DNA of 64,000 nt from an uncultured Bacteroidales bacterium. GTDB lineage: Bacteria > Bacteroidota > Bacteroidia > Bacteroidales > UBA10428. This document shows, one piece after another, positions 14,984-56,696 of the stretch. Location: the NCBI GenBank assembly GCA_963717995.1, contig CAVQXX010000012.1:774371-838370 (forward strand), read 5' to 3'. Every line of letters begins with the position of its first letter. Position 1 is the stretch's first letter. The position numbers and the translations under genes are program-made. The notes beneath the pieces were generated by a model that did no database searches, was not told where the DNA came from, and saw only the letters and a list, made by a program, of their open reading frames with translations.

Positions 14984-15089
14984 CGCCCCGGAGGGGCAAA
15001 TCTCAATAACCGTGGGTGAAACCCACGGAAAGGGCGAAGCCCGAAGGACCAGGGATAGGGCAATGCCCGATGATATAAAACAGAAACAT

Positions 15090-17077: not shown

Positions 17078-20000
17078 ATGAAGTTCAATTTCAAATCATT
17101 TTTTCTCCTGTTTTTTATCTCATTCCCGGCCAGATCATTTTCTCAGCAAATATTCATTAATGAAGCTATGTCGCTAAATGCCAGCATTATTTCTGATGAA
17201 GATGGTGCATACAGCAACTGGATTGAATTGTATAATGCGGCCGATGATCCGGTCAACTTGCAGGGATATGGTTTATCCGATGACAAAAGCAACCTGCTGA
17301 AATGGATATTTCCCGCCACCACAATAACTCCCAAATCACATATCCTGATTTTTACCTCTGGAAAGGATCGCAGTGACATCTATTACTGGGAAAATGTAAT
17401 TCATGAAGGAGATCTGTTCAAATATTCGGTGGACAATGACACAGCACAAAATGCCTGGAACGGGATTGAGTTCGATGATTCCACGTGGCCACAGGGTCCC
17501 AGTGGTTTTGGATTTGGCGACATGGACGATTCAACTGCGCTGAATAATGTGAATTCAGTTTTTATAAGGAAAACTTTCTCAGTGGAGGATGTGACCAAAA
17601 TCAAACGGATGATATTGCATATGGATTATGATGATGGTTTTGTGGCTTATCTGAACGGAGTTGAAATTGCACGTGCCAATATAGGAACCGTCGGTGACAG
17701 ACCGGCCTTTAGTGCCGTAGCCAAAACCTCACATGAGGCTGTCATGTATTCGGGTGGAAAACCCGAGGCTTTTATGATAGAGAACATCACATCACTTTTG
17801 CATAATGGCAGCAACCTGCTTGCCATTCAGGTTCACAATACGGGAAGTGGTTCTACTGACATGACAGCCATTCCTTTTCTTTCCCTGGCCCTGGATGCCC
17901 CTGTGCCGGAGCCGAATATCCTGCCGGAATGGTGGAACCTGGCTGATAACAACCTGCACACAAATTTCGATATTAAATCATCGGGAGAATATATTTCATT
18001 GTCAAATCCGGATGGACAAATTTTAGACAGCCTTCACACAATCGTTTTGCCAATCGATAAATCGTATGGTCGGTTTCCCGACGGAATGGATGAATGGTTC
18101 GTAATGAGTAATCCGACCCCCGCCACATCCAACATCGACACGATCAACATGGGATTATGTGAAAAGCCGGTTTTCTCTCTGGCGGCAGGATTTTATCCGG
18201 GCAGCATATCGATATCCCTTTCCACAAATACACCTAATTCATCCCTGTATTATACTTTGGATGGCAAGGAACCCACCAAAGCATCATTACCTTATTCAAC
18301 AGCGATAAATATCAATTCAACAGGTGTGATAAGAGCCCGCTGTTATTCACCGGAAACCAACCCCAGCCTGATAGCGACCGGCACTTACCTTATCAATGAG
18401 CAAAGTACAATGCCTGTGATTTCGCTGACAACTGATCCTTATAATCTGTATGATCCGGATTATGGAATTTTCCTGTACTGGGATCCGTATTATGAATCCA
18501 ACCTGTTTCAGGATTGGGAAAGACCGGTTCATGTTGAATATTATGAAGCAGACGGAACTCCCGGTTTCAGTCTGGATGCCGGCATGAAAGTTCATGGCGG
18601 TCTTACGCGTGGCCAGTCGCAAAAAGCACTGAACATCTATGCCCGGAATGTATATGGAACAAACCAGATAAATTATAGACTTTTTGATGATCTTTCCCAA
18701 ACCACTTACCAGTCCTTTGTTCTTCGTAATGCTGGAAATGATTTTAAATGGACCATTTTCAGGGATGAGCTCATGCATTCACTTATCCGGAATGAGATGG
18801 ACCTTGAACAATCATCTTACAGACCGTCCATCGTATTTCTGAATGGAGCCTATTACGGGATTGAACATGTACGTGAAAAAATAAATGAGAATTTTATTGC
18901 TGCGCACGCAGGGATTGATAAGGATAAAATTGACATGCTTGAATTCATTCCCCATGACAGCAATGTGAAAGTGCTGAAAGGAAAGGTGGATGCCTGGCAG
19001 CAGATGATTGATTATATCACCGCGAATGATCTTGGAGATAGTGCAAATTTTGCTGCAGTGGCTTCCCGGGTAGATATGGAAAATTTCATTTTATATCAAA
19101 TTGCCCAGATATATTTCGATAATGGCGACTGGCCGGGGAACAATATTAAATGGTGGCGTTCGAACAGTCCTGAAGGGAAATGGAGATGGATACTTTTCGA
19201 CACGGATTTCGGTTTCGGTCTTAGTCCCTTTGGAAATGAAACCGGTGATATGCTCCTTCATTACAAGCACAACACACTGGCAACAGCCACTGCTTCTACG
19301 GGAGAAACATGGCCAAATCCGCCGCATTCTACTTTCCTGTTCCGGAATTTGTTGAAGAATAAAAGCTTTAAGGCACAGTTTATCAATACCTTTTGTGATT
19401 ATTTGAATACCGCTTTTCAGGCATCTGTTGTAAAGGATAAAATCAATGCAATGAAAAATGACCTGGCACCTGAAATTCAGCGGCATCATCAGCGTTTTCC
19501 CGAGTCTGCCGGTAACTGGACCAATGACATCCAGGTGATGAGCACATTTGCCGATCTCAGGGTGGATTATGTGTTTACCCACATCAGAGCAAAATTTGCA
19601 TTACAGTCCACAAAGGTTATTTCCCTGGATGTTTCTGATACCAGCCAGGGCAGGATACAGATCAATACTCAGGTATTAAGGAACTATCCCTGGTCGGGAC
19701 AGTATTTCCCGAAAATTCCGATTATGATCACAGCCAGGCCGGAACCGGGTCACCAGTTTACAGGTTGGAATGATGGGAACAAATCCCTGTCAAGAGTTAT
19801 CGACCTTTCGACCGATCAGTCATATACTGCCTATTTTGAAGAAGTCACTGTCAACAATGATTCCGCCATCGTTATAAATGAAATTAATTATAAATCAGCA
19901 GCAAGCCTGGATACAAAGGATTGGATCGAGTTTTACAATAATTCCGGTGTGACAATGGATATTTCCGGATGGTTATTCCGTGATGACGATGACGAGCATG

Positions 20001-20647
20001 CCTATATATTTCCCGAGCCCACTGTAATTCAACCATACAATTATTTCGTTCTTTGCCGCGATGCACAGGCATTTAAACTTCTCAATCCCGATGCAAAACA
20101 TATGACCGGGGATCTCGATTTTAAACTGTCATCAACAGGTGACGTACTACGGCTGTATAACGCCGGCCGCACACTGATTGACAGGGTAGCTTATGGCAGT
20201 ATTACACCCTGGCCCGACCTGACCGGTATGGAAGGATCTACCCTTGAACTGATCGATCCGGGGCTGGATAATGCATTGCCCTTCAACTGGAAGGCCAGCG
20301 GCAAAAAGGGAGGAAGCCCAGTTGCTGTTAATAGTGGCAGTATTGTTACCGGTATAAGGAAACATTATGGGCCGGAATTGTCTTTGACAAACTATCCCAA
20401 TCCATTTCATGAATCGACAACAATTACCTGTCAGCTTTCAGAAAACGCCCGTGTAACCCTGGCTATTATTAATATGATGGGCCAGACGGTCAATATTCTT
20501 GTCAACCGGGACCAGTCAGCAGGGACCTTCGAGGTTGAATGGAACGGAACTGATGCGGCGGGGACGGAATTGCCATCCGGAATCTATATTTTCAGGCTAT
20601 CGACGGAAAAAGTACAAATATCTCGCAGATTGATGTTAATTCGATAA
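17078..20647 (+). CDS. secreted CotH-family (atypical kinase fold) protein with two lamin-tail domains, a CHB_HEX_C-like domain and a T9SS C-terminal sorting domain
   Basis: LTD motifs IFINEAMS..WIELYNAADDPVNLQGYGLSDD and IVINEINY..WIEFYNNSGVTMDISGWLFRDDDD. CotH-like FVLRNAGNDFKWTIFRDELMHSL and YFDNGDWPGNNIKWWR. CTD LTNYPNPFHESTTI...GIYIFRLS. Confidence 0.8.
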   Translation: MKFNFKSFFLLFFISFPARSFSQQIFINEAMSLNASIISDEDGAYSNWIELYNAADDPVNLQGYGLSDDKSNLLKWIFPATTITPKSHILIFTSGKDRSDIYYWENVIHEGDLFKYSVDNDTAQNAWNGIEFDDSTWPQGPSGFGFGDMDDSTALNNVNSVFIRKTFSVEDVTKIKRMILHMDYDDGFVAYLNGVEIARANIGTVGDRPAFSAVAKTSHEAVMYSGGKPEAFMIENITSLLHNGSNLLAIQVHNTGSGSTDMTAIPFLSLALDAPVPEPNILPEWWNLADNNLHTNFDIKSSGEYISLSNPDGQILDSLHTIVLPIDKSYGRFPDGMDEWFVMSNPTPATSNIDTINMGLCEKPVFSLAAGFYPGSISISLSTNTPNSSLYYTLDGKEPTKASLPYSTAININSTGVIRARCYSPETNPSLIATGTYLINEQSTMPVISLTTDPYNLYDPDYGIFLYWDPYYESNLFQDWERPVHVEYYEADGTPGFSLDAGMKVHGGLTRGQSQKALNIYARNVYGTNQINYRLFDDLSQTTYQSFVLRNAGNDFKWTIFRDELMHSLIRNEMDLEQSSYRPSIVFLNGAYYGIEHVREKINENFIAAHAGIDKDKIDMLEFIPHDSNVKVLKGKVDAWQQMIDYITANDLGDSANFAAVASRVDMENFILYQIAQIYFDNGDWPGNNIKWWRSNSPEGKWRWILFDTDFGFGLSPFGNETGDMLLHYKHNTLATATASTGETWPNPPHSTFLFRNLLKNKSFKAQFINTFCDYLNTAFQASVVKDKINAMKNDLAPEIQRHHQRFPESAGNWTNDIQVMSTFADLRVDYVFTHIRAKFALQSTKVISLDVSDTSQGRIQINTQVLRNYPWSGQYFPKIPIMITARPEPGHQFTGWNDGNKSLSRVIDLSTDQSYTAYFEEVTVNNDSAIVINEINYKSAASLDTKDWIEFYNNSGVTMDISGWLFRDDDDEHAYIFPEPTVIQPYNYFVLCRDAQAFKLLNPDAKHMTGDLDFKLSSTGDVLRLYNAGRTLIDRVAYGSITPWPDLTGMEGSTLELIDPGLDNALPFNWKASGKKGGSPVAVNSGSIVTGIRKHYGPELSLTNYPNPFHESTTITCQLSENARVTLAIINMMGQTVNILVNRDQSAGTFEVEWNGTDAAGTELPSGIYIFRLSTEKVQISRRLMLIR

Positions 20648-20672
20648 AAATGAATAACTTAATCTGAATATC

Positions 20673-22073
20673 ATGGATCCATATTCACGACGGGATTTTC
20701 TGAAAACCAGCGGATTGGCTGGTATGGCCTTTGCCACCGGGGCTGGTAAACTGGCTGCTGGTTTAAATGGCAGGGAGAAGCCAATGAATATCCTGTTTTT
20801 CCTGGCTGATGATTTGCGTTGGAACTCCCTGGGATGTGCCGGTAATGAGGTAGTGATCACCCCTGAAATTGACAGGCTGGCAAAGGATGGAATTCGTTTT
20901 GGCAATGCGCGGGTTACTTCATCCATATGCATGGTAAGCAGGGCCTCGATTCTTACGGGACAGCATATGAGCAGGCATGGGATAGACCGTTTTCTCACCC
21001 CCCTTTCAGATGAGGCACTTGAATCCACTTATCCTGCTGTATTGCGGAAGGCAGGGTATCATACCGGTTATGTAGGTAAATATGGAGTTGATCATATTAA
21101 GGAAGGACAATTTGACTTTTACAGGGAATATGAAGGACAGCACTGGATTACCGATGAGAGCGGAAACACGGTGCATGTTACTCAAAAGAACCTGAACGAT
21201 GCACTGACTTTTTTAAACGAGCGGCCGGGTGAAAAACCATTTTGTCTGACAGTCGGATTTTTTGCCACCCATGCAGAAGATAATAACCTGGATCAGTATT
21301 GCTATCAACCCGGGAGCGAGGAATTATTCAAGGATGCTATTATACCTATCCCAGAAACTTCATCGCCTGAATTTTTTGAGAAACTGCCTCCCTTTATCGG
21401 TAGTGAAGAGAATGAGGGTAGAAGGCGCTGGCACTGGCGATTCGATACGCCTGAAAAATACCAGCGTTATATGAAGGCCTATTACAGGATGCTGGCTGAG
21501 CTTGATCATGCGGTTGGCGAAATAGTGGCTGCGTTGAAGAAAGAGGGAGTCTATGAAAACACCCTGATCGTATTTATGGGTGACAACGGATATTTTCAAA
21601 GTGAACACCAGCTTGCGGATAAGTGGTATCCTTATGAAGAATCACTCAGGGTGCCCCTGGTAATTCATGATCCCCGCCTCCCTTCCGGAAAAAGAGGTAT
21701 GGTCAATGATGAATATGTGCTGAACATTGATGTTGCACCCTTTATCCTTGCTGCTGCAGGAAGAAAAGTTCCTGTAGTAATGCAGGGCAGGGATTTCAGT
21801 GAATTATACAATGAAAAAGAAAAGACTGGCTGGCGGCAGGATTTTTATTATGCCCATCCGGTGGTTATTGATGAAAAAAGGATCCCGGCCTCCGAGGCGA
21901 TCATTGCCCGTGATTCAAAATATATCCTTTGGCCAAATTACAATTATGAAGAGTTTTTTGACCTCGAAAAGGATTCAATGGAAAAGACAAACCGGATATC
22001 AGACCCAACTTATGCCAGGAAAATAGAAAACCTGAAAGAAAGGTTCAAAATCCTGAAAGAATCAGCTAAATAA
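20673..22073 (+). CDS. Tat-signal S1-family sulfatase with a variant active-site motif (C-M-V-S-R)
   Basis: MDPYSRRDFLKTSGLAGMAFATGAG. ILFFLADD, SSICMVSRASILTGQH, GKYG, FMGDNG, ELFDLEKD tail. Confidence 0.85.
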   Translation: MDPYSRRDFLKTSGLAGMAFATGAGKLAAGLNGREKPMNILFFLADDLRWNSLGCAGNEVVITPEIDRLAKDGIRFGNARVTSSICMVSRASILTGQHMSRHGIDRFLTPLSDEALESTYPAVLRKAGYHTGYVGKYGVDHIKEGQFDFYREYEGQHWITDESGNTVHVTQKNLNDALTFLNERPGEKPFCLTVGFFATHAEDNNLDQYCYQPGSEELFKDAIIPIPETSSPEFFEKLPPFIGSEENEGRRRWHWRFDTPEKYQRYMKAYYRMLAELDHAVGEIVAALKKEGVYENTLIVFMGDNGYFQSEHQLADKWYPYEESLRVPLVIHDPRLPSGKRGMVNDEYVLNIDVAPFILAAAGRKVPVVMQGRDFSELYNEKEKTGWRQDFYYAHPVVIDEKRIPASEAIIARDSKYILWPNYNYEEFFDLEKDSMEKTNRISDPTYARKIENLKERFKILKESAK

Positions 22074-23649: not shown

Positions 23650-23683
23650 GCTCACTGCTCTTATAACTTCCATATTCGACAAT

Positions 23684-23757
23684 CGGTATTCCTTGTTCGG
23701 TGTTATTTGGACCAAAACAACACCGAACAAGGAACACCGAATAATGAATTTCGAAGA
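23684..23757. repeat. copy A of a repeated intergenic inverted-repeat element
   Basis: A 21-nt arm cggtattccttgttcggtgtt pairs with aacaccgaacaaggaacaccg (1 mismatch, 14-nt loop). The 39-mer AACACCGAACAAGGAACACCGAATAATGAATTTCGAAGA is 36/39 identical to 56557-56595. Confidence 0.65.
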
Positions 23758-23990
23758 TCTTACTGGTTTTTTCATGGACAGCCGGGTTAAAGATCCCGAT
23801 GGAGCTTTATACAATCTGAAAACGGACCCGGATGAAAAAAAAATGTGTAACTTCATCCGGAATTTCAATGCATTATTGATGATTTGATTAATCTGGCGCA
23901 GGATTGGACTGCAGGTACAAACATATTAATCAATTAGTGAAGTGTGCTTTTTTCAGAATTCAGTTATGTAAAAATTACAATAACTCAGGT

Positions 23991-24086
23991 GTCATTTTAT
24001 ATATATAAATGCCTAAAAAGTATAAAAGAAATATCTGAAAAGAATTATTTTTGATAGATTAAAGTCTTAAACTTGTAATAACAACT
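23991..24086 (+). promoter_or_regulatory. conserved upstream blocks of TBDR module A, including a candidate Bacteroidetes -7 box
   Basis: The 32-nt block GTCATTTTATATATATAAATGCCTAAAAAGTA and the block TCTTAAACTTGTAATAACAACT both recur upstream of the second TBDR with the same 74-nt spacing. TAAACTTG is one mismatch from the TAnnTTTG -7 consensus. Confidence 0.45.
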
Positions 24087-24167
24087 TATTGGCAGTAATC
24101 AGTAATACATCTTAATCAAATGTTAACACTAAAACACTAATTATTCTAAATATAAAAAAAGTGTAAG

Positions 24168-27100
24168 ATGAGATCACTCAGGATATTAAAAAAGTCTGTT
24201 ATTGCTGTTCTGATCTGTTTGTCAGGTTTGGCTTCTGCTTATGGCTCAGGTACATTACAGGGAAGGATTACAAGCACCGAAGGCGAGCCATTACCTTTTG
24301 CCAATATTGTAATTACCCATAAGATTGAGGGTGGGCAAAGGATTGAGTTGAAATCTCAAATTGGTGCTGTTACAGACTTGGATGGTTATTTTGTTATTTC
24401 ATCATTGTCAGCAGGGAAATTTGTTGTTCATGTGATATATATAGGTTATGAGGCGCAGGAGTTTGAAGTAGCTATCGAGAATAATCAGAGCTTTACTCTG
24501 AATGCAGTTCTGGCAAGTAAAAGCACAAACCTGGAAGAAGTTGTTATAAGCGCCCAGTCAAAAGGTCAGATGGCTGCAATAAATCAGCAACTTGCGGCCA
24601 TATCCATTAAGAATGTTGTTTCTACCGATAGAATTCAGAATAACCCTGACGCCAACGCAGCCGAATCAATAGGTCGTTTACCCGGAGTTTCTGTAACAAG
24701 GTCGGGAGGTGAAGCCAGTGATATTGTAATCAGGGGAATGGCTCCCGAATACAATAAAGTATTATTGAACGGGATTGAAATTCCTTCCAATAAGGGGACC
24801 AGCAGAAATGCCAACTTAAGTGGAATATCACAGTCTTCTTTGCAGGGTATTGAAGTATACAAATCACTTACTCCTGATATGGACGCAAATTCAGTGTCAG
24901 GTACTGTTAATATGTTGTTACAGACGGCTCCCAGCGGACTGCATAGCAGTTTAACGGTACAGGGGGGCTATAATAATCAGAATAACGACTGGAAAAACTA
25001 TAAAATATTTGGGGAAATAAGTAATCGCTTTTTTGAAGACAAACTGGGTGTGAGTTTTGGTGCGAGCGTTGAAAGGGTCAATCGCAGTACTCAGACGCTG
25101 TCTGCCGGTTATTCCATTGAGTCCAATAATGCCCCGGCCGGGGAGTTTGAACCCATGTATGTAAATAATGTCAATTTAAATGATATCAGTAACATCATTC
25201 ATAGAAGTTCGGGCACACTCGTATTTGACTACCGTTTTTCACCTAAATCAACTATTCAGTTTTCCAATTTCTTTTCCTATAATCCCACTGACAATTTTAG
25301 CATGAGCAAAAGTTTTGCTCCGAAAAGTGGGGTTGGGTATAATACGAATCAGGCAAAAGGCGATGGGTACATTTATTCCGGAGCTGTTATCGGCAAACAT
25401 ACGCTGGGAATAATTCAGCTGGATTATGGAACAGCATATTCATTATCAAATAGTCATAGTAAAAGTATTGCTATGAATGTTTTCAATCCATTTGGATTCA
25501 ATCCGGAAGACGGGACACAGGAAAAAAGAAGCCTTCCATTGGTTGAGATACTTAGTTTGGCCAATGACGAGCCTACCCCTGAAAATTTAAAGAATTTTGG
25601 TTTATATGGCCCCGGGTCAGATGGTGAAGATTGGATGGATGAAAAACAATTTGATGCACATGCAGATGTTACAGTGCCATTTAAACTGACAGATTTTATC
25701 AGCGGAAAAGTAAAAGCTGGCGGGCAATACAAGCACAAAAACAGAAGTCACAATGCGGATTACAAGGTTTATGGAGGGCCGCCGTTTCATAAGCTTATTT
25801 CAGGGATTCAGCAAACAGGTGACGGAATTGACTGGGCATTGCCCTGGGTATCACTTAATACCCAACAAGCTGTTACTATGGAAAACATATATGTGGAAGA
25901 CAATAGTAAATTCCTTCAGGGAACTGAATACAGTTTTGGATGGGTTCCGGATATAAACAGATTAAATGAGGTTTATAACTGGTGGCAGGACATAACCGGT
26001 TATTATCTCGGACTTGGAGGAACTGCATGGCAGCCGATATTTGGTCAGGAAAGAATGATCAGTTATTATGATTTGCGTCAAAGTGTAGTTAATGACAATT
26101 CGGTTGCTGAAGATTATTATGCAGGTTATGCAATGGCTGAAATCAGCATAGGTAAGAAAGTTGATTTTATACCCGGGGTCCGCTACGAGAACATGAAGGA
26201 TGATATGACCGGTTGGTTTGTTCAGCGTGCATTGGATGAGGGAATCAGATTACCCGGATATGAAACTTCAGCTTCCCAGCAAAACGGACATTTTTTCCCG
26301 ATGGTTCACCTGAAAGTAAAACCTATAAAATGGGCGACTCTCCAATTCTCTTATACTCAAACAATACATCGTCCGGACTATAATTCAATTATTCCATTTG
26401 AATACCTGGAAAATGGTTTGAAACCATTCTCCTATACCTATGGAAATCCTGATCTAAAGCCCGAGTTATGGACCAATTATGATGTAATGCTCTCGATTTT
26501 TAATAATAAAATCGGATTGCTTTCACTGAATGGTTTTTATAAAACAGTTCAGGATAAAATCTGGTACCGGTCATGGATGAGGGTCACTAGTGATCCTGTT
26601 GTATCCACCTTTGCCAGCAATGACGAGGTACTTGTTGGCTCATGGTACAATAATGAGTATAATTCAACTGTAAAAGGCTTTGAAATAGAATGGCAGACGG
26701 ATTTCCGGTTTTTACCATCACCTTTTAATCTATTTTCATTAACGGCAAATTATTCGATTCTGAAGAACGAGACAACTTATCCTTTTTCTGAGGTAAATAT
26801 TATACAAACAGGTACCACATCCGCTGGAAGACCAATCTTTGAGAAGGTCCGGAGCGATTCGACATTTACCGGAATGATGATTAATCAGCCCAAGTCCCTG
26901 GCCAATGTTTCGCTTGGGTTCAGCTATAAAAAATTTGATATCTATGTATCATTCCAGTATATAGGAGCCATACTCACCAATAGAGCCGTTCAGGAGGAAT
27001 TTGACAATTATAAAAATGCGTTCTACAGGTGGGGGCTGCAGGGCAAGCTGGGACTTCCTGTAAAAGGACTGGAGTTGTTATTCAATGTAGCAAATCTAAA

Positions 27101-27200
27101 TAATATCCAGGAAAAACAATATAACAGGGGTGATAGCCGGCCAACCTATGTGGAAAGTTATGGCTGGACGGCAGATCTTGGAATCAGATATTCATTTTAG
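24168..27200 (+). CDS. TonB-dependent outer-membrane receptor with N-terminal carboxypeptidase-regulatory-like domain (apparently not SusC/RagA-type)
   Basis: Signal peptide. GRITSTEGEPLPFANIVI (CarbopepD_reg-like), plug NPDANAAESIGRLPGVSVTRSGGEASDIVIRGM, a long beta-barrel and a terminal ..DLGIRYSF. Confidence 0.9.
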   Translation: MRSLRILKKSVIAVLICLSGLASAYGSGTLQGRITSTEGEPLPFANIVITHKIEGGQRIELKSQIGAVTDLDGYFVISSLSAGKFVVHVIYIGYEAQEFEVAIENNQSFTLNAVLASKSTNLEEVVISAQSKGQMAAINQQLAAISIKNVVSTDRIQNNPDANAAESIGRLPGVSVTRSGGEASDIVIRGMAPEYNKVLLNGIEIPSNKGTSRNANLSGISQSSLQGIEVYKSLTPDMDANSVSGTVNMLLQTAPSGLHSSLTVQGGYNNQNNDWKNYKIFGEISNRFFEDKLGVSFGASVERVNRSTQTLSAGYSIESNNAPAGEFEPMYVNNVNLNDISNIIHRSSGTLVFDYRFSPKSTIQFSNFFSYNPTDNFSMSKSFAPKSGVGYNTNQAKGDGYIYSGAVIGKHTLGIIQLDYGTAYSLSNSHSKSIAMNVFNPFGFNPEDGTQEKRSLPLVEILSLANDEPTPENLKNFGLYGPGSDGEDWMDEKQFDAHADVTVPFKLTDFISGKVKAGGQYKHKNRSHNADYKVYGGPPFHKLISGIQQTGDGIDWALPWVSLNTQQAVTMENIYVEDNSKFLQGTEYSFGWVPDINRLNEVYNWWQDITGYYLGLGGTAWQPIFGQERMISYYDLRQSVVNDNSVAEDYYAGYAMAEISIGKKVDFIPGVRYENMKDDMTGWFVQRALDEGIRLPGYETSASQQNGHFFPMVHLKVKPIKWATLQFSYTQTIHRPDYNSIIPFEYLENGLKPFSYTYGNPDLKPELWTNYDVMLSIFNNKIGLLSLNGFYKTVQDKIWYRSWMRVTSDPVVSTFASNDEVLVGSWYNNEYNSTVKGFEIEWQTDFRFLPSPFNLFSLTANYSILKNETTYPFSEVNIIQTGTTSAGRPIFEKVRSDSTFTGMMINQPKSLANVSLGFSYKKFDIYVSFQYIGAILTNRAVQEEFDNYKNAFYRWGLQGKLGLPVKGLELLFNVANLNNIQEKQYNRGDSRPTYVESYGWTADLGIRYSF

Positions 27201-27339
27201 AATGACCATTCAAATTATTTCACATATGAATTACGGATTTTTTAACCTTTTTGAGAATAACTAATGATAAGATTTATATAGAGTTCATTATAACAGTTGA
27301 TACAATCTTTTCTATTTACTAAACTAAATCAATTTAAAC

Positions 27340-29508
27340 ATGAGAAAACTTAACTTTATTAGTATTATTGGGACCGCTTTACTGGGTCTGAGTAGTATTT
27401 CCTTTGCACAGGATACCCTTGTGGTAGCACCTGGACTTGGGACTTTAAATGCGGCTATTCTCGAGAATGGCGACGCTAAAATTTACAAGCTCGAAGCTGG
27501 TGCCTGGTACGGTCTGGATGCTATTATTGAAGCTGGTCCGGAATTGTCGGGACTGCAGATTATTGGTGAAAAAACGGATGGCCTTCCTGCCGTTATCCAG
27601 GTAGGAAATGCACAGGACGGATCTGTTTTTCCCAGTCTGTTCAATTTATTTACCAACCTGACACTTAAAAATGTATTTCTTGCCGATCAGGATTTTTCAG
27701 GGACTATCGGGACTACGGTTATGAATTTTAATGCTGCAGTTCGCGTTGTCGTTGACAATTGTGTTATTGATCCGGCAGGTATTAACTACACTTTTGGAGG
27801 TGGAGCTACGGGTGACCACTCCAAGCTGTATCTGACCAACAGTCAGATCTTTCGCAATGGCTATATCAGCTCGCCTAATGATGGTGGCTGGATTCAAGGT
27901 CAGCAATTGGATACACTCTGGGTAGAGAATAATACATTTGTTTCTTCAGGACAGGACTTTCTTGCACGTGGTTTTCACAGTCAGCCGACCAATGGATTTA
28001 TCTGGATAAACCATAACACTATTCTGTGGCATGATGTATGGATCAAAAAGTCATACAATGACCCGAATTTCTTTTTTACCAACAACCTGATGGTGGATCC
28101 AAGCATATATGCACAGATGTATACATGGGGACAATTCTTCCCTGATTACAGACTGGGTAATACCATGCTTAGCCTTACCAGTACTGATACAATGCAGGTT
28201 GATGATGGTAACGGTTCATTCATGAATGAAACCTTGCCTTCTGAAAGAACAATGTTCTGGCAGCGGAACCTTCAGTACAATTCGCCCCAGTTAAAAAGCC
28301 TGATAACAAATGCAAAGACTAAATATGGCGGAGATTTGTATCTCATACCCATGCTTTGGGATGAGAATACTCCTACGGATTATGCCGGGATACCTGTAGT
28401 ATCTCCTGCTGATTCAAGCAGAGAAAACAGGATATTGAACGATGATACAAACTGGCCCAATATGAAATACAATCATAATATGTATGATATTGACCCTCAA
28501 TGGGAAGATGCCAGGATTACAAATATGGAGGATAGTGTGGGTACTTTTATAAACGGATGGTTTGGCAAATTTGTATATGGAGACCCTGAAATTGATGCAA
28601 ACGCACTTCCAGGTTACAATTGGGATATTGACAATTGGAATGGTGTTTCAATGGCTGAATACCCGCAAACATGGCCACGTTTTAATGGTGTCTACACAAA
28701 TGCTGAATTGTTAACTGCTTCTACTGAAGGTCTTCCGTTGGGTGACCTGAACTGGTTCCCTGAAAATAAAGCAAAATGGGAAGCTGAAAAAGAGATGATC
28801 ATGGAACACATCTTAGCGCTGAATGAAGATCAATATGCAATTACGACAAGCAATACTGTTGTTGATATTATTGTTGCCAGTCCCGATCATGAAACACTCG
28901 AAGCTGCTGTCATAGCTGCTGAACTGGCTGATGATCTGTCAGCTGAGGGTCCCTTTACCGTATTTGCCCCCACGGACGATGCATTCGCTGCTCTTCCCGC
29001 AGGTACACTGGATGACCTGCTCGCAGATCCGACCGGCGACCTGGCCGACATACTCCTGTACCATGTGGTAAGCGGAAAGGTCATGTCAGCTGATCTCTCC
29101 GACGGTCAGACGGCCACTACACTGCTGGGTAAAGACATTACCGTGACCATCAATGGCGACGGCGTTTTCATCAATGATGCCAAGGTTACTGTAGCAGATA
29201 TAGAAGCAGATAATGGCGTTGTACATGTTATTGATGCTGTATTGATTCCATCCGCTGCAACAGGACTTCCGGGTAATATTGCTGATTCAAAAAAACTCAG
29301 TGTATATCCCAACCCGGCAAGTGACATTCTGAACGTGAAAGGATCCAAAAATGCTGACGTAACGATCATGAACATTGATGGACGCGTGGTTAGAAGTGCA
29401 AAGAATGTATCAAGTGTGAATATTTCTGATCTTGACAATGGTCTGTATTCAGTTACCATTAAAGAAGGAAATAAGGTTTCACAACAAAAGGTGATTATCG
29501 CCAGATAA
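27340..29508 (+). CDS. T9SS-sorted surface protein: N-terminal beta-helix-like domain, FAS1 (fasciclin) domain and type-A C-terminal sorting domain
   Basis: Signal peptide. Repetitive V.NC.I/L.NN.F segments. FAS1 motifs [55 protein letters not shown]...[13 protein letters not shown]. Confidence 0.7.
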
Positions 29509-29531
29509 GCACATGAATTACAAATGATCAG

Positions 29532-29612
29532 TTTTAACGAAGTGCAATAAGCACTTCGTTAAAAGAGTAATGGTGAAAAGGAGAGTATATGATTTAGATA
29601 CTCTCCTTTTTT
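29532..29612 (+). terminator. two hairpins after module A; the second is followed by a T-run (intrinsic terminator)
   Basis: TTTTAACGAAGTGC-aataa-GCACTTCGTTAAAA, then AAAGGAGAGTAT-9 nt-ATACTCTCCTTTTTT. Confidence 0.6.
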
Positions 29613-29626
29613 CTTTATGGCACCAG

Positions 29627-29722
29627 GTCATTTTATATATATAAATGCCTAAAAAGTACAAAAGAAACCGCTAAAAAAAATTGATTGGCTTAAATTTAAA
29701 TCTTAAACTTGTTATAACAACT
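29627..29722 (+). promoter_or_regulatory. conserved upstream blocks of TBDR module B (duplicate of 23991-24086)
   Basis: The same 32-nt block and TCTTAAACTTGTTATAACAACT, with block starts again 74 nt apart, lie 84 nt upstream of the ATG at 29806. Confidence 0.45.
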
Positions 29723-29805
29723 ATGCAGGAATGCATGGTGGATAAATAATATTTGCATCGGCCCATTACAAAAACAGATAATAAGTTCATTTACCCCTTT
29801 CAAAA

Positions 29806-32778
29806 ATGAAAAAAACATTTTCACTGCTTGTTCTTATCATGCTCTGTTCTGCTTCACTCCTTTTTGGTCAGAATAAATCCCAGGTAAGGGTTAACGGGAA
29901 AGTAGCTGATGCAGTCACCGGAGAAGTTTTACCGGGAGTGAATATATTGGTGCAGGGAACCTTAACAGGTACCGTAACCGGGGTGGATGGCAGGTATTCA
30001 GTTCTTGTAAATGGCTCAGAATCAGTTCTGGTATATTCCTTTATCGGGTATGTGTCACAGACGGTAACTGTTGGCACACAATCGGCTATTGATATTGAGT
30101 TGAGTCCTGACGTTCAGACCTTAGGGGAAGTAGTGATCACGGCCCAGGGGAGAGGACAGAAGCAGGCAGTTCAGCAGCAGATCAATTCCAATACGATAAA
30201 GAATGTGGTAGCGCCTGACCGCTTGCAGGAGAATCCCGATGCAAATGCCACAGAGGCCATTGGCCGTTTGCCAGGTATTTCGGTCATACGATCGGGTGGC
30301 GAGGGCACCGGCCTCATGATCCGTGGTCTTGAACCGCGGTATGCTTCGGTTTCGCTGAACGGGGTACAAATGGCTTCAACGAGCGGGGAGAACCGGGGTA
30401 CGAACATCAGCGGAATTTCGCAGTATGCCTTGCAGGGGGTTGAGGTTTACAAATCGCTGACAGCGGATATGGAAGCGAATTCAGTGGCAGGATCAGTTAA
30501 CCTGAAGCTGCGGGAAGCACCCCAGCATTTTCACGTAAATTTAATGGCACAGGGGGGATATAACCAGTTGAACGATTACTGGGGCAATTATAAGCTATTG
30601 GGTGAAGTCAGCAACCGTTTCCTGAATGATAAGCTCGGGGTATTGGTTTCGGTGAATGCCGAAAGGGTTAACCGGAGCATCCAGACCATGAGTGCCGGGT
30701 ATGGAATAGATGGCAGCGATCCGGAAGGGGACATATTGCTGAATAGTGTAAACCTGAACAATAATACTTCGATCATCTACAGGAAATCGCTGTTGTTATC
30801 GGTTGATTTTAAGGTATCACCAGGTACCACATTGATGTTATACGGCATGTATAACAACGCGAAGAATGACTATGAACGCCAGTCGAAGAACTACGGTGTG
30901 ACCGGGGCCGGATCTGTGGGATATTCATTCGAGACCCGTCCGGACAATAAAAACAATATTTTACAGACAGCCTTGAGCGGTGAATCTAAAATAAAATTCC
31001 TCAACATTAAGGCAGATTACGGGATTGCATATTCCCTGGGTAATGCCAATAATACGGGTTCAAAAAACTGGAACTTCAATTTCGATAATGTAGCCTCCTC
31101 TGCAATTACGGATATTGAGCATAGAAAAATGGATCCGACAGAGATTGTCCCTTTGTTCACTGATGATCCAAGTAAGCTCAATGACTGCTATCTGACCGGA
31201 TTAGGAGTAACTGAAAGCAAAACTGACGACAGGAACATCCATACTTATCTGAATGTTTCGGTACCTTTTAAAATAGGAGAGCTGATAAGCGGGAATGTTA
31301 AATTCGGAGGAATATACCGGGTAAAAAACAGGACAAGGGATGATCAGGTTGGCGGTCAGAATGTGGGAGCAAACCAGTTTTTACCCAGGATTCTTCAGGA
31401 TTCACTGGACTGGGTTGTGATCGATGACATTCCCCGTTTATTGGCTGTTGGGCTGGAAGGGGAAGAAGTTGACAATTTTCTGAACGGAGATTACAATTAT
31501 GGAACTACTTTTAACATTGACCGGTTGAACCAGCTCTCAAACACTTGGACTGAAGTATCGGATTACGCTTATTCACTCGGACCGAGTTACTATCTTCCCC
31601 TTGTGGGGGAAGTCGCAAAGCTCGGTTATTCTCAAAATGTGGCCGGATGCATGCTGAATGACCAGGATATCCGGGAAACCTACGTGGCGGGTTATATCAT
31701 GCCGGAGTTCAATATCACCAAGTATGTAATGTTCATGCCCGGATTCAGGTATGAAAAAACAAATGACGATATGAAGGGATATTATGCATTGCCTCCGCAG
31801 TATCCTCCTCCTGTTTCTGCTCCGGTCCCGGGAGATTCCACATCAGCTTCGCGATCAGATCAGTTCTTCCTGCCGATGATCCATCTGAGGATAAAACCGA
31901 CAGATAAGTTTTATGCACATTTCTCATATACGAAAACATTGAGCCGTCCAGATTTCAATGGCATCTCACCAAACTATTACGTAAATACCGGTTGGGCACC
32001 GTTTACCTACACGGCTAACAATCCGGAATTAAATCCCGAACTCTGGACCAGTTACGATGCACAGTTTACCTTCCACGGGGACAAGATCGGACTGTTTTCG
32101 GTCACCGGTTTTTACAAAACAGTGGACGATAAAATATGGCAAAGATCCTATCAACGTATCAGAGGTGACGAAATCATTGATCCGTTCCCGGATAATGCAG
32201 TGGTGAATGTGACAATATGGGAGAACCATCCCTATACCGCTTTTGTTGAAGGTGTGGAACTTGAGTGGCAGACGTCGTTTTATTATTTGCCAAAGCCTTT
32301 TAGCTTTTTTACCCTGTATGCCAATTATACCTATACACATTCGGAAACAACCTATCCATATACTGACATCAGAAGCGTTGTTCCTCCCGGAGGCGGACGT
32401 CCGGTTTCCGTGAGAGTCGATTCTACCACAAAGGGCCCGATGCTTTATCAACCACAGCAAATAGCCAACGTTTCTCTTGGGTTTAACTACAAGGGATTTA
32501 ATGCATGGCTTTCCTACCAGTATAATGGTTTGATCTATACCGGGAAAAACTACCGGGGTGCTCCCAGACTGGATTCACAAAAGGAACACTTTAACCGATG
32601 GGATCTTCAGCTGACACAGAAATTCAGGATCGCCAAATTGAGTGGATTCGAGGTAATCGCCAATATTGCAAACATCTCCAATTTCACAGAATCACAAAGA
32701 CTCAGGGGTGATCCACGGCTCACCTACCAAGAAAAATTTGGCTTGACGGCTGACCTTGGAGTAAGATATCGATTTTAA
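29806..32778 (+). CDS. TonB-dependent outer-membrane receptor, paralogue of 24168..27200
   Basis: GKVADAVTGEVLPGVNILVQGT, NPDANATEAIGRLPGISVIRSGGEGTGLMIRGL, terminal ..DLGVRYRF. Colinear with the first receptor. Confidence 0.9.
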   Translation: MKKTFSLLVLIMLCSASLLFGQNKSQVRVNGKVADAVTGEVLPGVNILVQGTLTGTVTGVDGRYSVLVNGSESVLVYSFIGYVSQTVTVGTQSAIDIELSPDVQTLGEVVITAQGRGQKQAVQQQINSNTIKNVVAPDRLQENPDANATEAIGRLPGISVIRSGGEGTGLMIRGLEPRYASVSLNGVQMASTSGENRGTNISGISQYALQGVEVYKSLTADMEANSVAGSVNLKLREAPQHFHVNLMAQGGYNQLNDYWGNYKLLGEVSNRFLNDKLGVLVSVNAERVNRSIQTMSAGYGIDGSDPEGDILLNSVNLNNNTSIIYRKSLLLSVDFKVSPGTTLMLYGMYNNAKNDYERQSKNYGVTGAGSVGYSFETRPDNKNNILQTALSGESKIKFLNIKADYGIAYSLGNANNTGSKNWNFNFDNVASSAITDIEHRKMDPTEIVPLFTDDPSKLNDCYLTGLGVTESKTDDRNIHTYLNVSVPFKIGELISGNVKFGGIYRVKNRTRDDQVGGQNVGANQFLPRILQDSLDWVVIDDIPRLLAVGLEGEEVDNFLNGDYNYGTTFNIDRLNQLSNTWTEVSDYAYSLGPSYYLPLVGEVAKLGYSQNVAGCMLNDQDIRETYVAGYIMPEFNITKYVMFMPGFRYEKTNDDMKGYYALPPQYPPPVSAPVPGDSTSASRSDQFFLPMIHLRIKPTDKFYAHFSYTKTLSRPDFNGISPNYYVNTGWAPFTYTANNPELNPELWTSYDAQFTFHGDKIGLFSVTGFYKTVDDKIWQRSYQRIRGDEIIDPFPDNAVVNVTIWENHPYTAFVEGVELEWQTSFYYLPKPFSFFTLYANYTYTHSETTYPYTDIRSVVPPGGGRPVSVRVDSTTKGPMLYQPQQIANVSLGFNYKGFNAWLSYQYNGLIYTGKNYRGAPRLDSQKEHFNRWDLQLTQKFRIAKLSGFEVIANIANISNFTESQRLRGDPRLTYQEKFGLTADLGVRYRF

Positions 32779-32905
32779 TTTATAACTTAGTAACTGAAAA
32801 AATTAGTTTATTACTAACCCTACTAAAAGAAAGGAGAGAAATTACACCTAACAATCCAAATGAAATTATTAACTTTTCTATTAATACTAATTTAAATCTA
32901 TTACG

Positions 32906-35103
32906 ATGAGAAAATTTTACATGATTGCTTTACTAGCTTTCTTGTTCATCGGGAACACAATTGCCCAGGATGTCCTGGTGGTTGAACCCGGTTTAGGAAC
33001 ATTGAATGCTGCTGTTCTCGCCAATGGTGGCGATAAGATTTATGAACTTACCGCCGGTGAGTGGTACGGTTTGGACGCACCGATCGAAAACGTTGATTAT
33101 CATTTACAGATTATTGGCAGCGCACCTGCTGAAGCAGGTGGAAAGCCAGCAACGCTGCAAACAGGTTCCGATGTTAATGGTGCTGTTTTTAGCAAGATGT
33201 TCGATTCAAAGGGTGACATAACCCTCAAGAACATTTTCATTGTCAATGCAGACCTTAACGCCCAGGTTGGATTTGAATGTCTGGTAGAAAGTAAAATGGA
33301 TGCCCGCATTGTCGTTGATAATTGCGTATTTCATCCTTCCTGCGTTGGACAGGGTGTAACCGGTTCAGGTGGAGGCAATAAATGTTATTTTACCAACAAC
33401 CAGGTTGTTGACCATGGTCATATGCTGAGCCCGAATGACGGTCACTTCTTTAATTTCTCCAATACTGCAGCCGGCAAAGGTTTTGATTCCTTGTGGGTTG
33501 AAAACAATACTTTTGTTTGTATGGGTATGAACGTGTTTCAGGGAAGTTTTGGCGACATGGTAAATAACGTAGTGGCTTTCAACCACAATACCTTCGTTTT
33601 TGCCAAGAGCCAGATTGACTGGACAACCAAAAAAATGGAAGAATACTGGACAAACAACCTGATGTTCGATCTCCAGGTTGATCCTTACGCAAATAACTGG
33701 CAGCCTATGCCGGGTGGAGACCCCAGTATGCCCAAGCCTAACCTCATTTACGCAGATACCCTGACTGATGAGGTCATGCCTTCCACACGCCCGAATTTCG
33801 TGGAATATAATGCACTTTACAGAGCACAGGGTTTCTATGACCTGGTTGACCGAGATGAACGTATTCTGTAAAGAACAGGATCCTCCACTCCCGGGTGTTT
33901 ACCTGTATCCTTTGGTTTGGCCCCGTGACACCCTGAATAGCAGGGAAGCACAGATGTTTGGCAGTACGGATTTTCCGAAATTTAAATTTGGCAATTATAT
34001 CGCTGATGTTGATCCCCAGTGGACTGATCAGGCAATTTATGAACATGAGACTTTGTTTATTGAGTGGGCAAGTCCTGCAAATTATGTTCACGCACTTGGA
34101 CAACCTTCAGACAAATTATCCTCCCGCAACAGAGTGGGCACAGTATTGGTGGATACCAAGCGGTGACCTTTCCGATAACAGCGTATGGCCTTTATTTGAC
34201 GGAACCTATACCAATGAGCAGTATCTGAAGGGTTCGATAGAGAGAAATGTTCCTCTCGGTGACCTGAACTGGTGGCCGGAAGCAAAAGCTGCATGGGAAC
34301 TCAAGAAAGCTGATGTATGGGCACACATTCAGGCTGGTAACGAAAGCCAGATTGACATTGGATATGGTGAACCTCTTGCTCCTGCAGTATTCCCGGTTGA
34401 CTTTGAAGCCGAAACGGATGCAGTATGGGAGATTTTTGGCAACGGTACCGCTGGTCCTGCTGATCTCACAATTATAGACAATCCGGATAAATCAGGAATC
34501 AATACCTCCGATAAAGTAGCGAAATTCATTGTTAATGATGACGCAGATCCATGGGCAGGTACATATTCAGATTCATATCCTACCATTGAATTTACCGAAG
34601 CTAATCATATGATTACCATGATGGTATGGAAATCAGGTACCGATCCGGTTGGAATCAAGGTCGAATCACCTGCAAATGGTGGCGCTGTAACGGAAGTTAA
34701 AATTCCGGTTACCCTGACAGAAGAATGGGAATTGGTTACGGCTGACTTTAGTGCCGTCATCGGATTTAACTATGACAGACTTACGATATTCCCTGATTTT
34801 CCTGAAACCAGAACCGCTGGTGCTACAGTTTACATTGATAATATCGCCCTGGCTGCGGCTACCGGTGTTGTGGATGTAAAAGCAGAAGGTTTATTTGTAT
34901 ATCCGAACCCCACAAGTGACGTTTTGAGCGTAAAGGGTGGCAAAAATGCTGACATCACCATTATGAACATTGACGGCCGCGTGGTAAGAAGCGTAAGGAA
35001 TGTATCTTCTGTAAATGTTTCTGATCTTGCCAAAGGCTTGTATTCAGTAACTATTCAGTCAGGTAAGGAAGTTTCTACACAGAAGGTTGTTATTTCCAGG
35101 TAA
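32906..35103 (+). pseudogene. frame-interrupted paralogue of 27340..29508: beta-helix-like domain, CBM-like beta-sandwich (in place of FAS1) and T9SS sorting domain
   Basis: ORFs 32906..33871, 33768..34166 and 33958..35103 lie in successive +1 frames (shifts near 33851 and ~34100) and are colinear with the 722-aa paralogue ([21 protein letters not shown].., ..DVDPQWTDQAI.., ..VPLGDLNWWPEAKAAWE..). CTD LFVYPNPTSDVLSV...GLYSVTIQSGKEV. Confidence 0.65.
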
Positions 35104-35183
35104 GTGTAGAATTTGTATTGATTGATTTTATGGAGTGAAAAAACATTTATGTTTTAACCACTTATCAAATTGATTTATTGTGA

Positions 35184-35226
35184 AAAGGAGAGGAATTATT
35201 TATTGATGACTCTCCTTTTCCTTTTT
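35184..35226 (+). terminator. hairpin plus T-rich tail after module B
   Basis: AAAGGAGAG-17 nt-CTCTCCTTTTCCTTTTT has the same AAAGGAGAG/CTCTCCTTT stem sequence as the module A terminator. Confidence 0.55.
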
Positions 35227-35316
35227 ATATATAAGATCTTTTCTGTTGCAGCCAGATCGCTGCTATACAATGAACCTTTTTCAAAAGGCACTTTCACTGC
35301 ATAACCTAAGACTATT

Positions 35317-42077: not shown

Positions 42078-42091
42078 AAAGAACTTTGTCA

Positions 42092-56556: not shown

Positions 56557-56696
56557 AACACTGAACAAGGAACACTGAATAGTGAATTTCGAAGACGCTT
56601 CTTTCAAATTAGAATAATTCCTAAATAAGGTGAATATCTTCATAATTCATAATTCATAATTCATAATTTGCCCTACGGTGTTCCTTGTTCAGTGTT
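56557..56696. repeat. copy B of the repeated inverted-repeat element, enclosing a (CATAATT)x4 heptamer array
   Basis: Arms AACACTGAACAAGGAACAC (56557-56575) and GTGTTCCTTGTTCAGTGTT (56678-56696) are perfect complements. The heptamer array lies at 56641-56668. Confidence 0.65.

Follow-up and report, generated by a model that had tools for sequence, protein, structure and literature searches.

Glycan utilisation loci of the Bacteroidota are currently found and counted by the SusC/SusD pair (RagA/RagB), in which a transporter gene is followed by the gene of a surface protein. A 2026 review of glycoside transporters treats SusC/D as the hallmark of polysaccharide utilisation loci (PULs) in this phylum, and the secretion system of type IX (T9SS) goes unmentioned in it (PMC13543919). 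Here we describe a 64,000-nucleotide stretch of DNA from an uncultured Bacteroidales bacterium (assembly GCA_963717995.1, contig CAVQXX010000012.1, positions 774,371 to 838,370; hereafter the window), in which two modules each encode a TonB-dependent receptor (TBDR) followed by a beta-helix protein with a T9SS sorting domain, which we call the partner. Receptor and partner recur together, in place of SusC/SusD, at well over a hundred loci sampled from Bacteroidota and Ignavibacteria, frequently next to genes for rhamnose sugars. Together the two proteins look like a route, not described before, by which complex sugars are captured and imported. Glycan uptake by a TonB-dependent transporter (TBDT) with a surface partner is already known; what appears to be new is a TIGR01782-class transporter fixedly paired with a T9SS-sorted beta-helix protein of an unannotated family. 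We found no description of such a receptor and T9SS partner pair in the open-access literature, such absence being no proof of novelty.

The likeness to SusC/SusD goes beyond gene order. In both systems the pair lies within loci of carbohydrate-active enzymes (CAZymes) and sulfatases, the transporter has about 1000 aa with a carboxypeptidase-regulatory-like domain, a plug and a large barrel, several diverged paralogous pairs occur per genome with both genes co-diverging, and LacI, AraC or hybrid two-component regulators are encoded nearby. However, the receptors described here fail the SusC/RagA model and pass TIGR01782, the partner is a beta-helix whereas SusD is TPR-like and alpha-helical, the partner lacks a lipobox and takes the T9SS route whereas SusD uses lipoprotein export, and the window contains no SusD gene. 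By curated score, the receptors belong to the same subfamily as the TIGR01782 TBDRs of Xanthomonas, Caulobacter and marine Gammaproteobacteria, whose carbohydrate utilisation containing TBDR (CUT) loci are likewise CAZyme loci without SusD, and for which the same review mentions no surface partner (PMC13543919). Unlike the TBDRs of CUT loci, those in the window carry a Bacteroidota-type N-terminal domain, and receptors of this kind almost always precede a dedicated T9SS-sorted partner. A classical-type TBDT fed by an adjacently encoded surface or extracellular protein is also found in XusA-XusB and BtuB-BtuG of B. thetaiotaomicron, in HasR-HasA and in TbpA-TbpB. However, the partners in these systems are lipoproteins or secreted hemophores with siderophores, cobalamin, haem or transferrin as their ligands; XusB, BtuG, HasA and TbpB are neither T9SS cargo nor beta-helices, and the context here is glycan degradation. 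Finally, T9SS exports components of glycan loci in F. johnsoniae (ChiA) and in the cellulose system of Cytophaga hutchinsonii, but this cargo consists of recognised enzymes that form no fixed gene pair with one receptor clade, and F. johnsoniae still relies on SusC/SusD-like pairs in its chitin locus.

The receptor and its T9SS-sorted partner

The two modules are colinear on the + strand, at 23991-29612 (module 1) and 29627-35226 (module 2), each of about 5.6 kb. Both have the order upstream block, TBDR gene, partner gene and hairpin terminator, with 127-139 nt separating receptor and partner (Table 1). Pfam recognised the domains CarbopepD_reg_2, Plug and TonB_dep_Rec_b-barrel in TBDR1 and TBDR2. 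Both receptors also passed the NCBIfam model TIGR01782 (TonB-Xanth-Caul) by a small margin (324.0 bits for TBDR1 and 321.2 bits for TBDR2; cutoff 310), with matches covering positions 1-868 and 3-868, respectively, of the 868 in the model. For the SusC/RagA model TIGR04056, TBDR1 gave no match at E <= 0.01 and TBDR2 failed with 92.4 bits against a cutoff of 368.25, its match being confined to residues 28-174 in the N-terminal domain. The N-terminal carboxypeptidase-like domain, plug and barrel are common to SusC but are insufficient for SusC/RagA membership, and the hidden Markov model comparison bears out the initial annotation, which had placed both receptors nearer to the Xanthomonas/Caulobacter type. 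An AlphaFold2 (AF2) model of TBDR1, built from a 67-sequence alignment, has a predicted local distance difference test score (pLDDT) of 86.7 and consists of an N-terminal beta-sandwich, a plug and a barrel. Its top structural matches are the classical TBDTs PhuR, PfeA, HasR, FecA, TbpA and B. thetaiotaomicron XusA, three of which (HasR, TbpA and XusA) are transporters that work with surface partners; no SusC chain was present in the 50 top structural matches. Among receptors adjacent to a partner gene in other loci, 37/37 matched TIGR01782, and their SusC/RagA matches were weak (best E 1.6e-32). A subset of the receptor relatives (P0283, P0297, P0326 and others) carries an extra STN domain (PF07660). 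Since this domain usually denotes trans-envelope signalling to a pair of anti-sigma and extracytoplasmic function (ECF) sigma factors, some members of the receptor clade may double as signal transducers.

The partners begin with signal peptides whose hydrophobic N-termini end in AQD, without a lipobox cysteine in partner 1, and end with a T9SS sorting domain that scored well above the cutoffs of TIGR04183 and PF18962 (23 and 27) in partner 1 (48.3 and 53.4 bits) and in partner 2 (48.8 and 53.0 bits). Their N-terminal domains (N-domains) share 35% identity over 332 aa. The N-domain (480 aa) matched no Pfam or NCBIfam model, including Pfam searches to E <= 10 with eight diverse family members, and in PDB searches with the partner, by single sequence and by profile, the fasciclin and T9SS sorting domains alone found matches. 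DUF4957 was considered as the family of the N-domain and rejected, the matches being weak (one member at E 0.0018) and limited to 2/76 members. Structure prediction agreed with the beta-helix noticed in the initial annotation: the AF2 model of the partner 1 N-domain (76-sequence alignment; pLDDT 94.8, predicted TM-score 0.94) gives, with high confidence, a right-handed beta-helix at residues ~4-292, followed by a mixed helical subdomain at 295-479. Partner 1 has none of the features of SusD, given this predicted fold, its cysteine-free signal peptide and the lack of a SusD Pfam match. The structures nearest to the model in Foldseek were the PL6 alginate lyases 7o77, 7dmk and 5gkd (E 8e-5 to 6e-4, probability 1.0), although these matches are distant (TM-score 0.31-0.46, identity 12-18%); pectate lyases, RbmB and phage depolymerases ranked lower. 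The PL6 lyases (alginate lyase, chondroitinase B) thus share the right-handed parallel beta-helix with the partner, but the latter has in addition a conserved C-terminal subdomain of ~185 aa with a PxGDLNW motif. At E <= 0.05 none of the 76 members matched the Pfam chondroitinase-B/PL6 or pectate-lyase models, nor did the eight diverse proteins match the chondroitinase-B/PL6 model at E <= 10; the general Beta_helix model gave a weak match in 2/76.

Homologues of the N-domain comprise more than 340 proteins, and phmmer against 1.84 billion representative proteins returned 339 partner clusters (50% identity) at E <= 1e-3. The typical member is a protein of ~590 aa made up of the N-domain and the sorting domain, which was present in 74/76 sampled members; rare variants add fasciclin, discoidin or Fib_succ_major. 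In partner 1 the addition is a fasciclin domain (PF02469; residues 516-637, 130.7 bits against a cutoff of 22) whose PDB matches are FAS1 domains from TGFBIp and periostin. Elsewhere this domain was found in no more than the three closest relatives that gave full-length matches (P0001, P0003 and P0005), not family-wide. The accessory domain of partner 2, a CBM-like beta-sandwich, matches PDB entry 8qx6 (E 3.5e-6). An alignment of 101 sequences of the partner superfamily, reaching down to 20% identity, contains several positions conserved in at least 90% of sequences: an Asn ladder (N146, N176, N205, N227, N228 and N289), the aromatic residues Y28, Y36, W424, Y431 and W451, the residues D170 and H204, and, within the C-terminal subdomain, the motif P445-x-G-D-L-N-W. 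The most conserved motif, WP...Y...PxGDLNW, lies in this subdomain, outside the groove of the beta-helix. D170, H204 and D448 are the sole conserved charged or ionisable residues; no Lys or Arg reaches 90% conservation in this alignment, no conserved acidic cluster of the PL6 type was seen in it, and R340, invariant among closer relatives, is lost across the wider family.

We then surveyed how often the two genes occur together, using one genome per GTDB species. At least 507 stretches encode a partner relative, and 80 loci were kept, in metagenome-assembled genomes (MAGs) labelled as Bacteroidales, Paludibacter, Draconibacterium, Cyclobacteriaceae, Roseivirgaceae and Ignavibacteria/Melioribacter. 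Upstream sequence of 3.3 kb or more was available for 59 partner genes. In 49/59 the gene of a receptor of the type described here lay upstream on the same strand and ended at a distance of less than 500 bp; a further 7/59 had one within 3.5 kb, and 3/59 had none. The reverse survey, a metagenome scan seeded with the receptor alignment, yielded 52 receptor genes with at least 1.5 kb of downstream sequence, 48/52 of which had a partner-family open reading frame (ORF) directly downstream (within 2.5 kb in 2/52, none in 2/52). The linkage on which the initial annotation had staked its proposal therefore extends to other genomes, and adjacency persists to ~30% receptor identity and 20% partner identity. 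The distance matrices of receptors and partners from 54 adjacent pairs are correlated with a Pearson r of 0.93, a value that none of 2000 Mantel permutations reached, although a common species phylogeny inflates correlations of this kind; independent clusterings of the two proteins also agree (adjusted Rand index 0.82-0.88). A single genome can contain several diverged copies of the pair. Module 1 of the window falls in one matched clade and the module-2 type (taken from the closely related MAG contig L002) in another, and the two pairs of L002 itself are likewise divided, which shows that receptor and partner are duplicated together and then diverge together. In L087, where the partner gene stands without a receptor, its neighbours are a sulfatase gene, a gene for a beta-helix protein like Pel9A and, on the opposite strand, an arabinofuranosidase gene. 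The labels of some carrier bins are implausible, namely Caldisericaceae (L024), Candidatus Micrarchaeota archaeon (L062) and a MAG named Chitinophaga pinensis (L010/L036/L040; labels in the order of the locus list), and are probably binning or naming errors.

A SusD gene appears to be missing from this setting altogether. None of the ~45 principal ORFs scanned in the window gave a SusD-family Pfam match, in agreement with the initial annotation, and the ORFs leave no gap that would fit a 500-aa gene. A SusD hidden in one of two family-less ORFs, encoding the 605-aa lipoprotein of Table 1 and a 641-aa protein (15012-16937; no Pfam or NCBIfam match), was considered and rejected, as neither gave a SusD match in the family searches. 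In a census of 71 genes flanking the pair at genome loci, the SusD family was absent from the 25 commonest families, and none was listed in the annotated neighbourhoods of related pairs (Pfam-annotated, from JGI, ENA and Logan assemblies). The commonest families in the census were GH78 (12), GH106 (6), sulfatase (5), AraC (5), PA14 (5), T9SS sorting domain (5), CBM6 (4), LacI (4) and hybrid two-component sensors (3).

The context of the pair points to rhamnose-rich glycans. Genes of L-rhamnose catabolism or transport (RhaA, RhaT and rhaM), with or without FGGY kinase, aldolase and LUD genes, adjoin it in L003, L085 and L168, and rhamnose genes recur in the neighbourhoods of more distant partner relatives. 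GH78 rhamnosidases flank the pair in L003 and L086, and in L085 and L086 the pair is directly preceded by a LacI regulator gene. The locus in the window (1-45.4 kb) encodes GH43-type, arabinofuranosidase-like, GH106-like, GH127 and GH28 proteins, four sulfatases, a CotH/lamin-tail T9SS protein, a CBM6/PA14 protein and several family-less ORFs. Given the sulfatases together with GH127, GH43 and GH28, a sulfated, rhamnose-containing polysaccharide is a reasonable guess for its substrate. At 11351-18411 of L168, a 4.6-Mb MAG contig, receptor and partner stand directly after a complete rhamnose catabolic operon, and genes for two more T9SS-sorted proteins (937 aa and 670 aa) lie 3' of them.

Possible roles of the partner

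On balance, we think it probable that receptor and partner form a conserved, SusD-independent unit for the capture and import of glycans at the outer membrane. Each module would be a two-gene uptake unit, transcribed from a promoter of the same regulated kind and closed by a separate terminator. Its first gene encodes a TIGR01782-class TonB-dependent transporter with a Bacteroidota-style N-terminal carboxypeptidase-like domain, and the second a protein that would be exported via Sec and then via T9SS and would be expected to remain tethered to the surface once its sorting domain is removed. The beta-helix, together with the C-terminal subdomain, would capture a glycan rich in rhamnose, in this locus probably a sulfated one, and pass oligosaccharides to the transporter, thereby taking the role of SusD or of another surface glycan-binding lipoprotein in classical PULs. 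Fasciclin, the CBM-like sandwich and discoidin, the variable domains that precede the sorting signal, would contribute adhesion or binding. The initial annotation had offered the T9SS-attached protein, as glycan-capturing or lyase partner of the receptor, in place of SusD; pairing and co-divergence strongly support the SusD-independent design. Between capture and cleavage, we favour capture and hand-over. Since the WP...Y...PxGDLNW motif is invariant while the glycan context varies, it would fit a constant interaction, for example with the receptor. A more specific version of this idea is possible but tentative: the beta-helix partner may be a true structural subunit, docked onto the transporter from the extracellular side through the invariant WP...PxGDLNW subdomain and a conserved helical loop insert of the receptor at about aa 540-642, forming a second, so far unrecognised type of glycan 'utilisome' that arose in parallel to SusCD and is spread across Bacteroidota and Ignavibacteriota.

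Several points weigh against such a unit. Contact between partner and receptor is itself something we infer. Type A sorting domains do not guarantee anchoring, as some T9SS cargo is released into the medium, and the insertion of variable domains after the conserved module, ahead of the anchor, argues against the fixed geometry of a SusD-like lid. The pairing statistics come from loci that were chosen by similarity to these proteins and that are phylogenetically related. Orphan partner genes exist that have no receptor within 8 kb upstream (L013, L018, L026/L087), the closest folds are polysaccharide lyases (PL6), with H204, D170, Y28, Y36 and Y431 conserved in the partner, and partner 2 is frameshifted in this sequence, which, if real, would leave module 2 defective here.

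Some of these points would be met by an enzyme. The partner could belong to a new family of endo-acting polysaccharide lyases or hydrolases, exported by T9SS and cutting the polymer on the surface or close to it, while the receptor imports the products; the two would still be functionally coupled, with the partner in a SusG-like catalytic role. The ranking of PL6 alginate lyases, pectate lyases, RbmB and phage depolymerases among its structural matches agrees with this, the five conserved residues just named could form a His/Tyr-type catalytic centre, orphan copies occur without a receptor, and CBM-like and discoidin accessory domains are typical of secreted CAZymes. However, we consider an enzyme rather unlikely: the TM-scores and identities of the PL6 matches are low, the sequence models of PL6 and pectate lyases go unmatched in the family, the catalytic Lys/Arg pair and the acidic Ca2+ site of PL6 appear to have no conserved counterpart (R340 being lost in the wider family), and the most conserved motif lies outside the groove. 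Lyase pathways also normally include a GH88/GH105 unsaturated-uronyl hydrolase, and no convincing one was found in the window, where a weak sub-threshold GH88 match lies inside a GH127 gene, or among the 25 commonest neighbour families. Adjacency might instead reflect co-regulation only, with the receptor working alone and the partner being an adhesin or other T9SS cargo without a role in transport. We know of no surface partner described for the proteobacterial TIGR01782-class receptors, partner 1 carries a fasciclin adhesion domain, and some partner genes are orphans; but direct same-strand adjacency in 83-92% of testable loci, down to 20-30% identity, and matching distance matrices and clusters are hard to explain without joint function, and fasciclin is a rare add-on rather than a family feature. 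This explanation therefore seems very improbable.

The frameshifts raise a separate question. Both partners had been annotated as T9SS-sorted proteins of ~720 aa, which is correct for partner 1 (722 aa); partner 2 is not an intact ORF and runs from frame 2 (32906-33871) through frame 3 (~33846-34109) to frame 1 (~34114-35103). Comparison by tblastn with partner 1 and the L002 orthologue placed one +1 indel near 33847 and a second near 34110. It could be that module 2, perhaps along with other parts of the locus, is decaying, in which case the frameshifts would be real pseudogenisation and module 1 alone would be functional here. Further CAZyme genes of the window are also split (12878-14924, 41929-43870, 43959-45399 and 9161-11243): one GH127 gene has a frame shift at 14314/14316, a second GH127 is read in three frames, and a GH28 gene and a GH43-like gene also appear split. 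We nevertheless regard decay as unlikely. The disruptions examined in partner 2 and the GH127 genes are single-site frame changes within well-conserved coding sequence, with no in-frame stops or deletions among them. Against the intact 568-aa orthologue in L002, partner 2 is 85-89% identical across its first two frame segments, that is, on either side of the first shift, and 71% identical in the T9SS sorting domain; identity is 67% over the third segment, which enters an accessory domain lacking in L002. One shift sits in an A-run (gacAAAtta). Closely related MAG contigs, named in the style contig_NNNN, are split in other genes, namely TBDR2 in L001/L005 and TBDR1 and partner 1 in L017. Since such splitting of different genes in related contigs is a signature of consensus indels in long-read assemblies, most of the frameshifts are probably errors of this kind rather than decay.

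Layout and history of the two modules

Seven families of repeat matches, all spaced 5.52-5.64 kb, link the modules in a repeat analysis of the window. The ~5.6-kb layout with conserved upstream blocks, receptors of about 1000 aa and terminators with the same stem thus stands as initially annotated; the features are collected in Table 1.

Table 1. Positions and properties of the features of both modules and of the gene that follows them
Feature	Position in window	Strand	Properties
Upstream block, module 1	23991-24086	+	96 nt, non-coding; palindrome TTTATATATATAAA and TAAACTTG motif
TBDR1, 1010 aa	24168-27200	+	Signal peptide, carboxypeptidase-regulatory-like N-terminal domain, plug, beta-barrel
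Partner 1, 722 aa, intact ORF	27340-29508	+	Sec signal peptide, predicted beta-helix and C-terminal subdomain, FAS1, T9SS type A sorting domain
Partner 1, predicted beta-helix and C-terminal subdomain	27403-28839	+	AF2, Foldseek
Partner 1, FAS1/fasciclin domain	28885-29250	+	Pfam
Partner 1, T9SS type A C-terminal sorting domain	29302-29505	+	Por_Secre_tail; Pfam/NCBIfam
Intrinsic terminator hairpin, module 1	29572-29620	+	Stem AAAAGGAGAGUAU...AUACUCUCCUUUU, then U tract; -18.5 kcal/mol, z -4.78
Upstream block, module 2	29627-29722	+	96 nt, non-coding; counterpart of the module 1 block
TBDR2, 990 aa	29806-32778	+	Architecture of TBDR1; 41% identity to TBDR1
Partner 2, ~731 aa if frame repaired	32906-35103	+	N-domain, CBM-like beta-sandwich (~34330-34900), T9SS sorting domain; two +1 frameshifts
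Intrinsic terminator hairpin, module 2	35182-35227	+	Stem GAAAAGGAGAG...CUCUCCUUUUC, then U tract; -20.1 kcal/mol, z -4.71
Predicted lipoprotein, 605 aa	35317-37134	+	Signal sequence ...ILGCLAC; 3' of module 2 here and in L002

The upstream blocks are 83% identical to each other, and their first 32 nt (GTCATTTTATATATATAAATGCCTAAAAAGTA; 23991-24022 and 29627-29658) are 100% identical. This 32-mer has no further copy in the window, and 0/100 shuffled windows gave a match. The motif TAAACTTG within the block of module 1 resembles a Bacteroidota -7 element; a scan with the sigma-70 consensus, which is ill-suited to Bacteroidota promoters, was uninformative. In the relatives L001 and L002 the block is kept 5' of both receptor types while the flanking and downstream leader sequences differ, which fits a putative common operator/promoter. 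The 32-nt sequence with its palindrome TTTATATATATAAA is likely an operator at which some regulator binds; the 45-kb locus contains no gene recognised as encoding one. Since an Rfam scan of the whole window matched zero families, the block is not a known RNA element. The terminator hairpins were folded directly, since a consensus terminator scan had missed both, and have the stem AAAGGAGAG/CTCTCCTTT in common. A terminator of its own and a common upstream block in each module would fit co-regulated two-gene operons.

The tandem duplication proposed in the initial annotation did not hold up. A recent event of this kind is ruled out by the 41% identity of the receptors, the 35% identity of the partners and the placement of the L002 pairs in different matched clades, and the modules are, judged by these comparisons, old paralogous pairs from different old clades. 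Some parts are far more alike than the receptors and partners are, namely the upstream block, the terminator stem and the sorting domain, which in partners 1 and 2 has 73-77% nucleotide and 66% amino-acid identity. The sorting domain and terminator of partner 1 (29302-29620) are of the partner-2 type in the window and of a different type in L002 and L007: the 3' end of partner 1 is 73% identical to partner 2 of the window compared with 56-57% to the ends of orthologous partner 1 genes. An ancestral origin of the common terminator and sorting domain is ruled out by these differing ends in L002 and L007. Since partner 1 of these relatives lacks the partner-2-type end, it appears that a 3' module was swapped or converted between the partner genes in this lineage. 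Accessory domains have turned over in the same 3' region, with fasciclin present in partner 1 of the window and absent from L002, and the CBM-like domain present in partner 2 of the window and absent from L002 and L007. A DUF4838 gene separates the modules in L001 and L002; it is absent from that place (29509-29806) in the window.

Neighbouring genes and significance of the pair

The 605-aa predicted lipoprotein encoded 3' of module 2 gave no result in Pfam (to E <= 10), NCBIfam or PDB sequence searches, and may be an accessory component; it is not SusD-like. No genes for the T9SS machinery were found in the window. T9SS sorting domains are present in the CotH/lamin-tail protein and in the L002 orthologue of the CBM6/PA14 protein. 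The former (17078-20647, 1189 aa) combines CotH kinase-like, two lamin-tail, chitobiase C-terminal-like and T9SS sorting domains; it keeps its position in L001 and L002, and its presence in a glycan locus is unusual. In both relatives the CotH gene is separated from the first sulfatase gene by a radical-SAM/SPASM gene, probably for a sulfatase maturase, that is absent from the corresponding place in the window (20647-20673); a radical-SAM gene of the window lies elsewhere, at 47585-48904 on the minus strand. A palindromic element with arms AACACCGAACAAGGAACACCGA occurs as intergenic inverted pairs at 23667-23756 and 56557-56696. Shuffled sequences gave none, and the element looks like a small repeat of the repetitive extragenic palindromic (REP) or miniature inverted-repeat transposable element (MITE) type. 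The non-coding stretch at 23760-23900, which separates the sulfatase gene from module 1, can be translated into a sulfatase C-terminus (LYNLKTDPDEKKNV ... HPEF.IIDDLINLAQDW) with a break at an A9 run and is probably a gene remnant.

If receptor and partner work together, PUL predictors are overlooking loci of this type, and T9SS would gain a direct role in nutrient import. The large family annotated as 'T9SS type A sorting domain-containing protein' would gain a function, and an uptake route for rhamnose-rich glycans, sulfated in the present case, in sediments and soils would become testable. Should the partner moreover dock on the transporter as tentatively suggested above, the gene pair would be a new marker for polysaccharide utilisation loci that are invisible to SusC/SusD-based prediction, and the receptor would be the first outer-membrane transporter with a partner supplied by the type IX secretion system.

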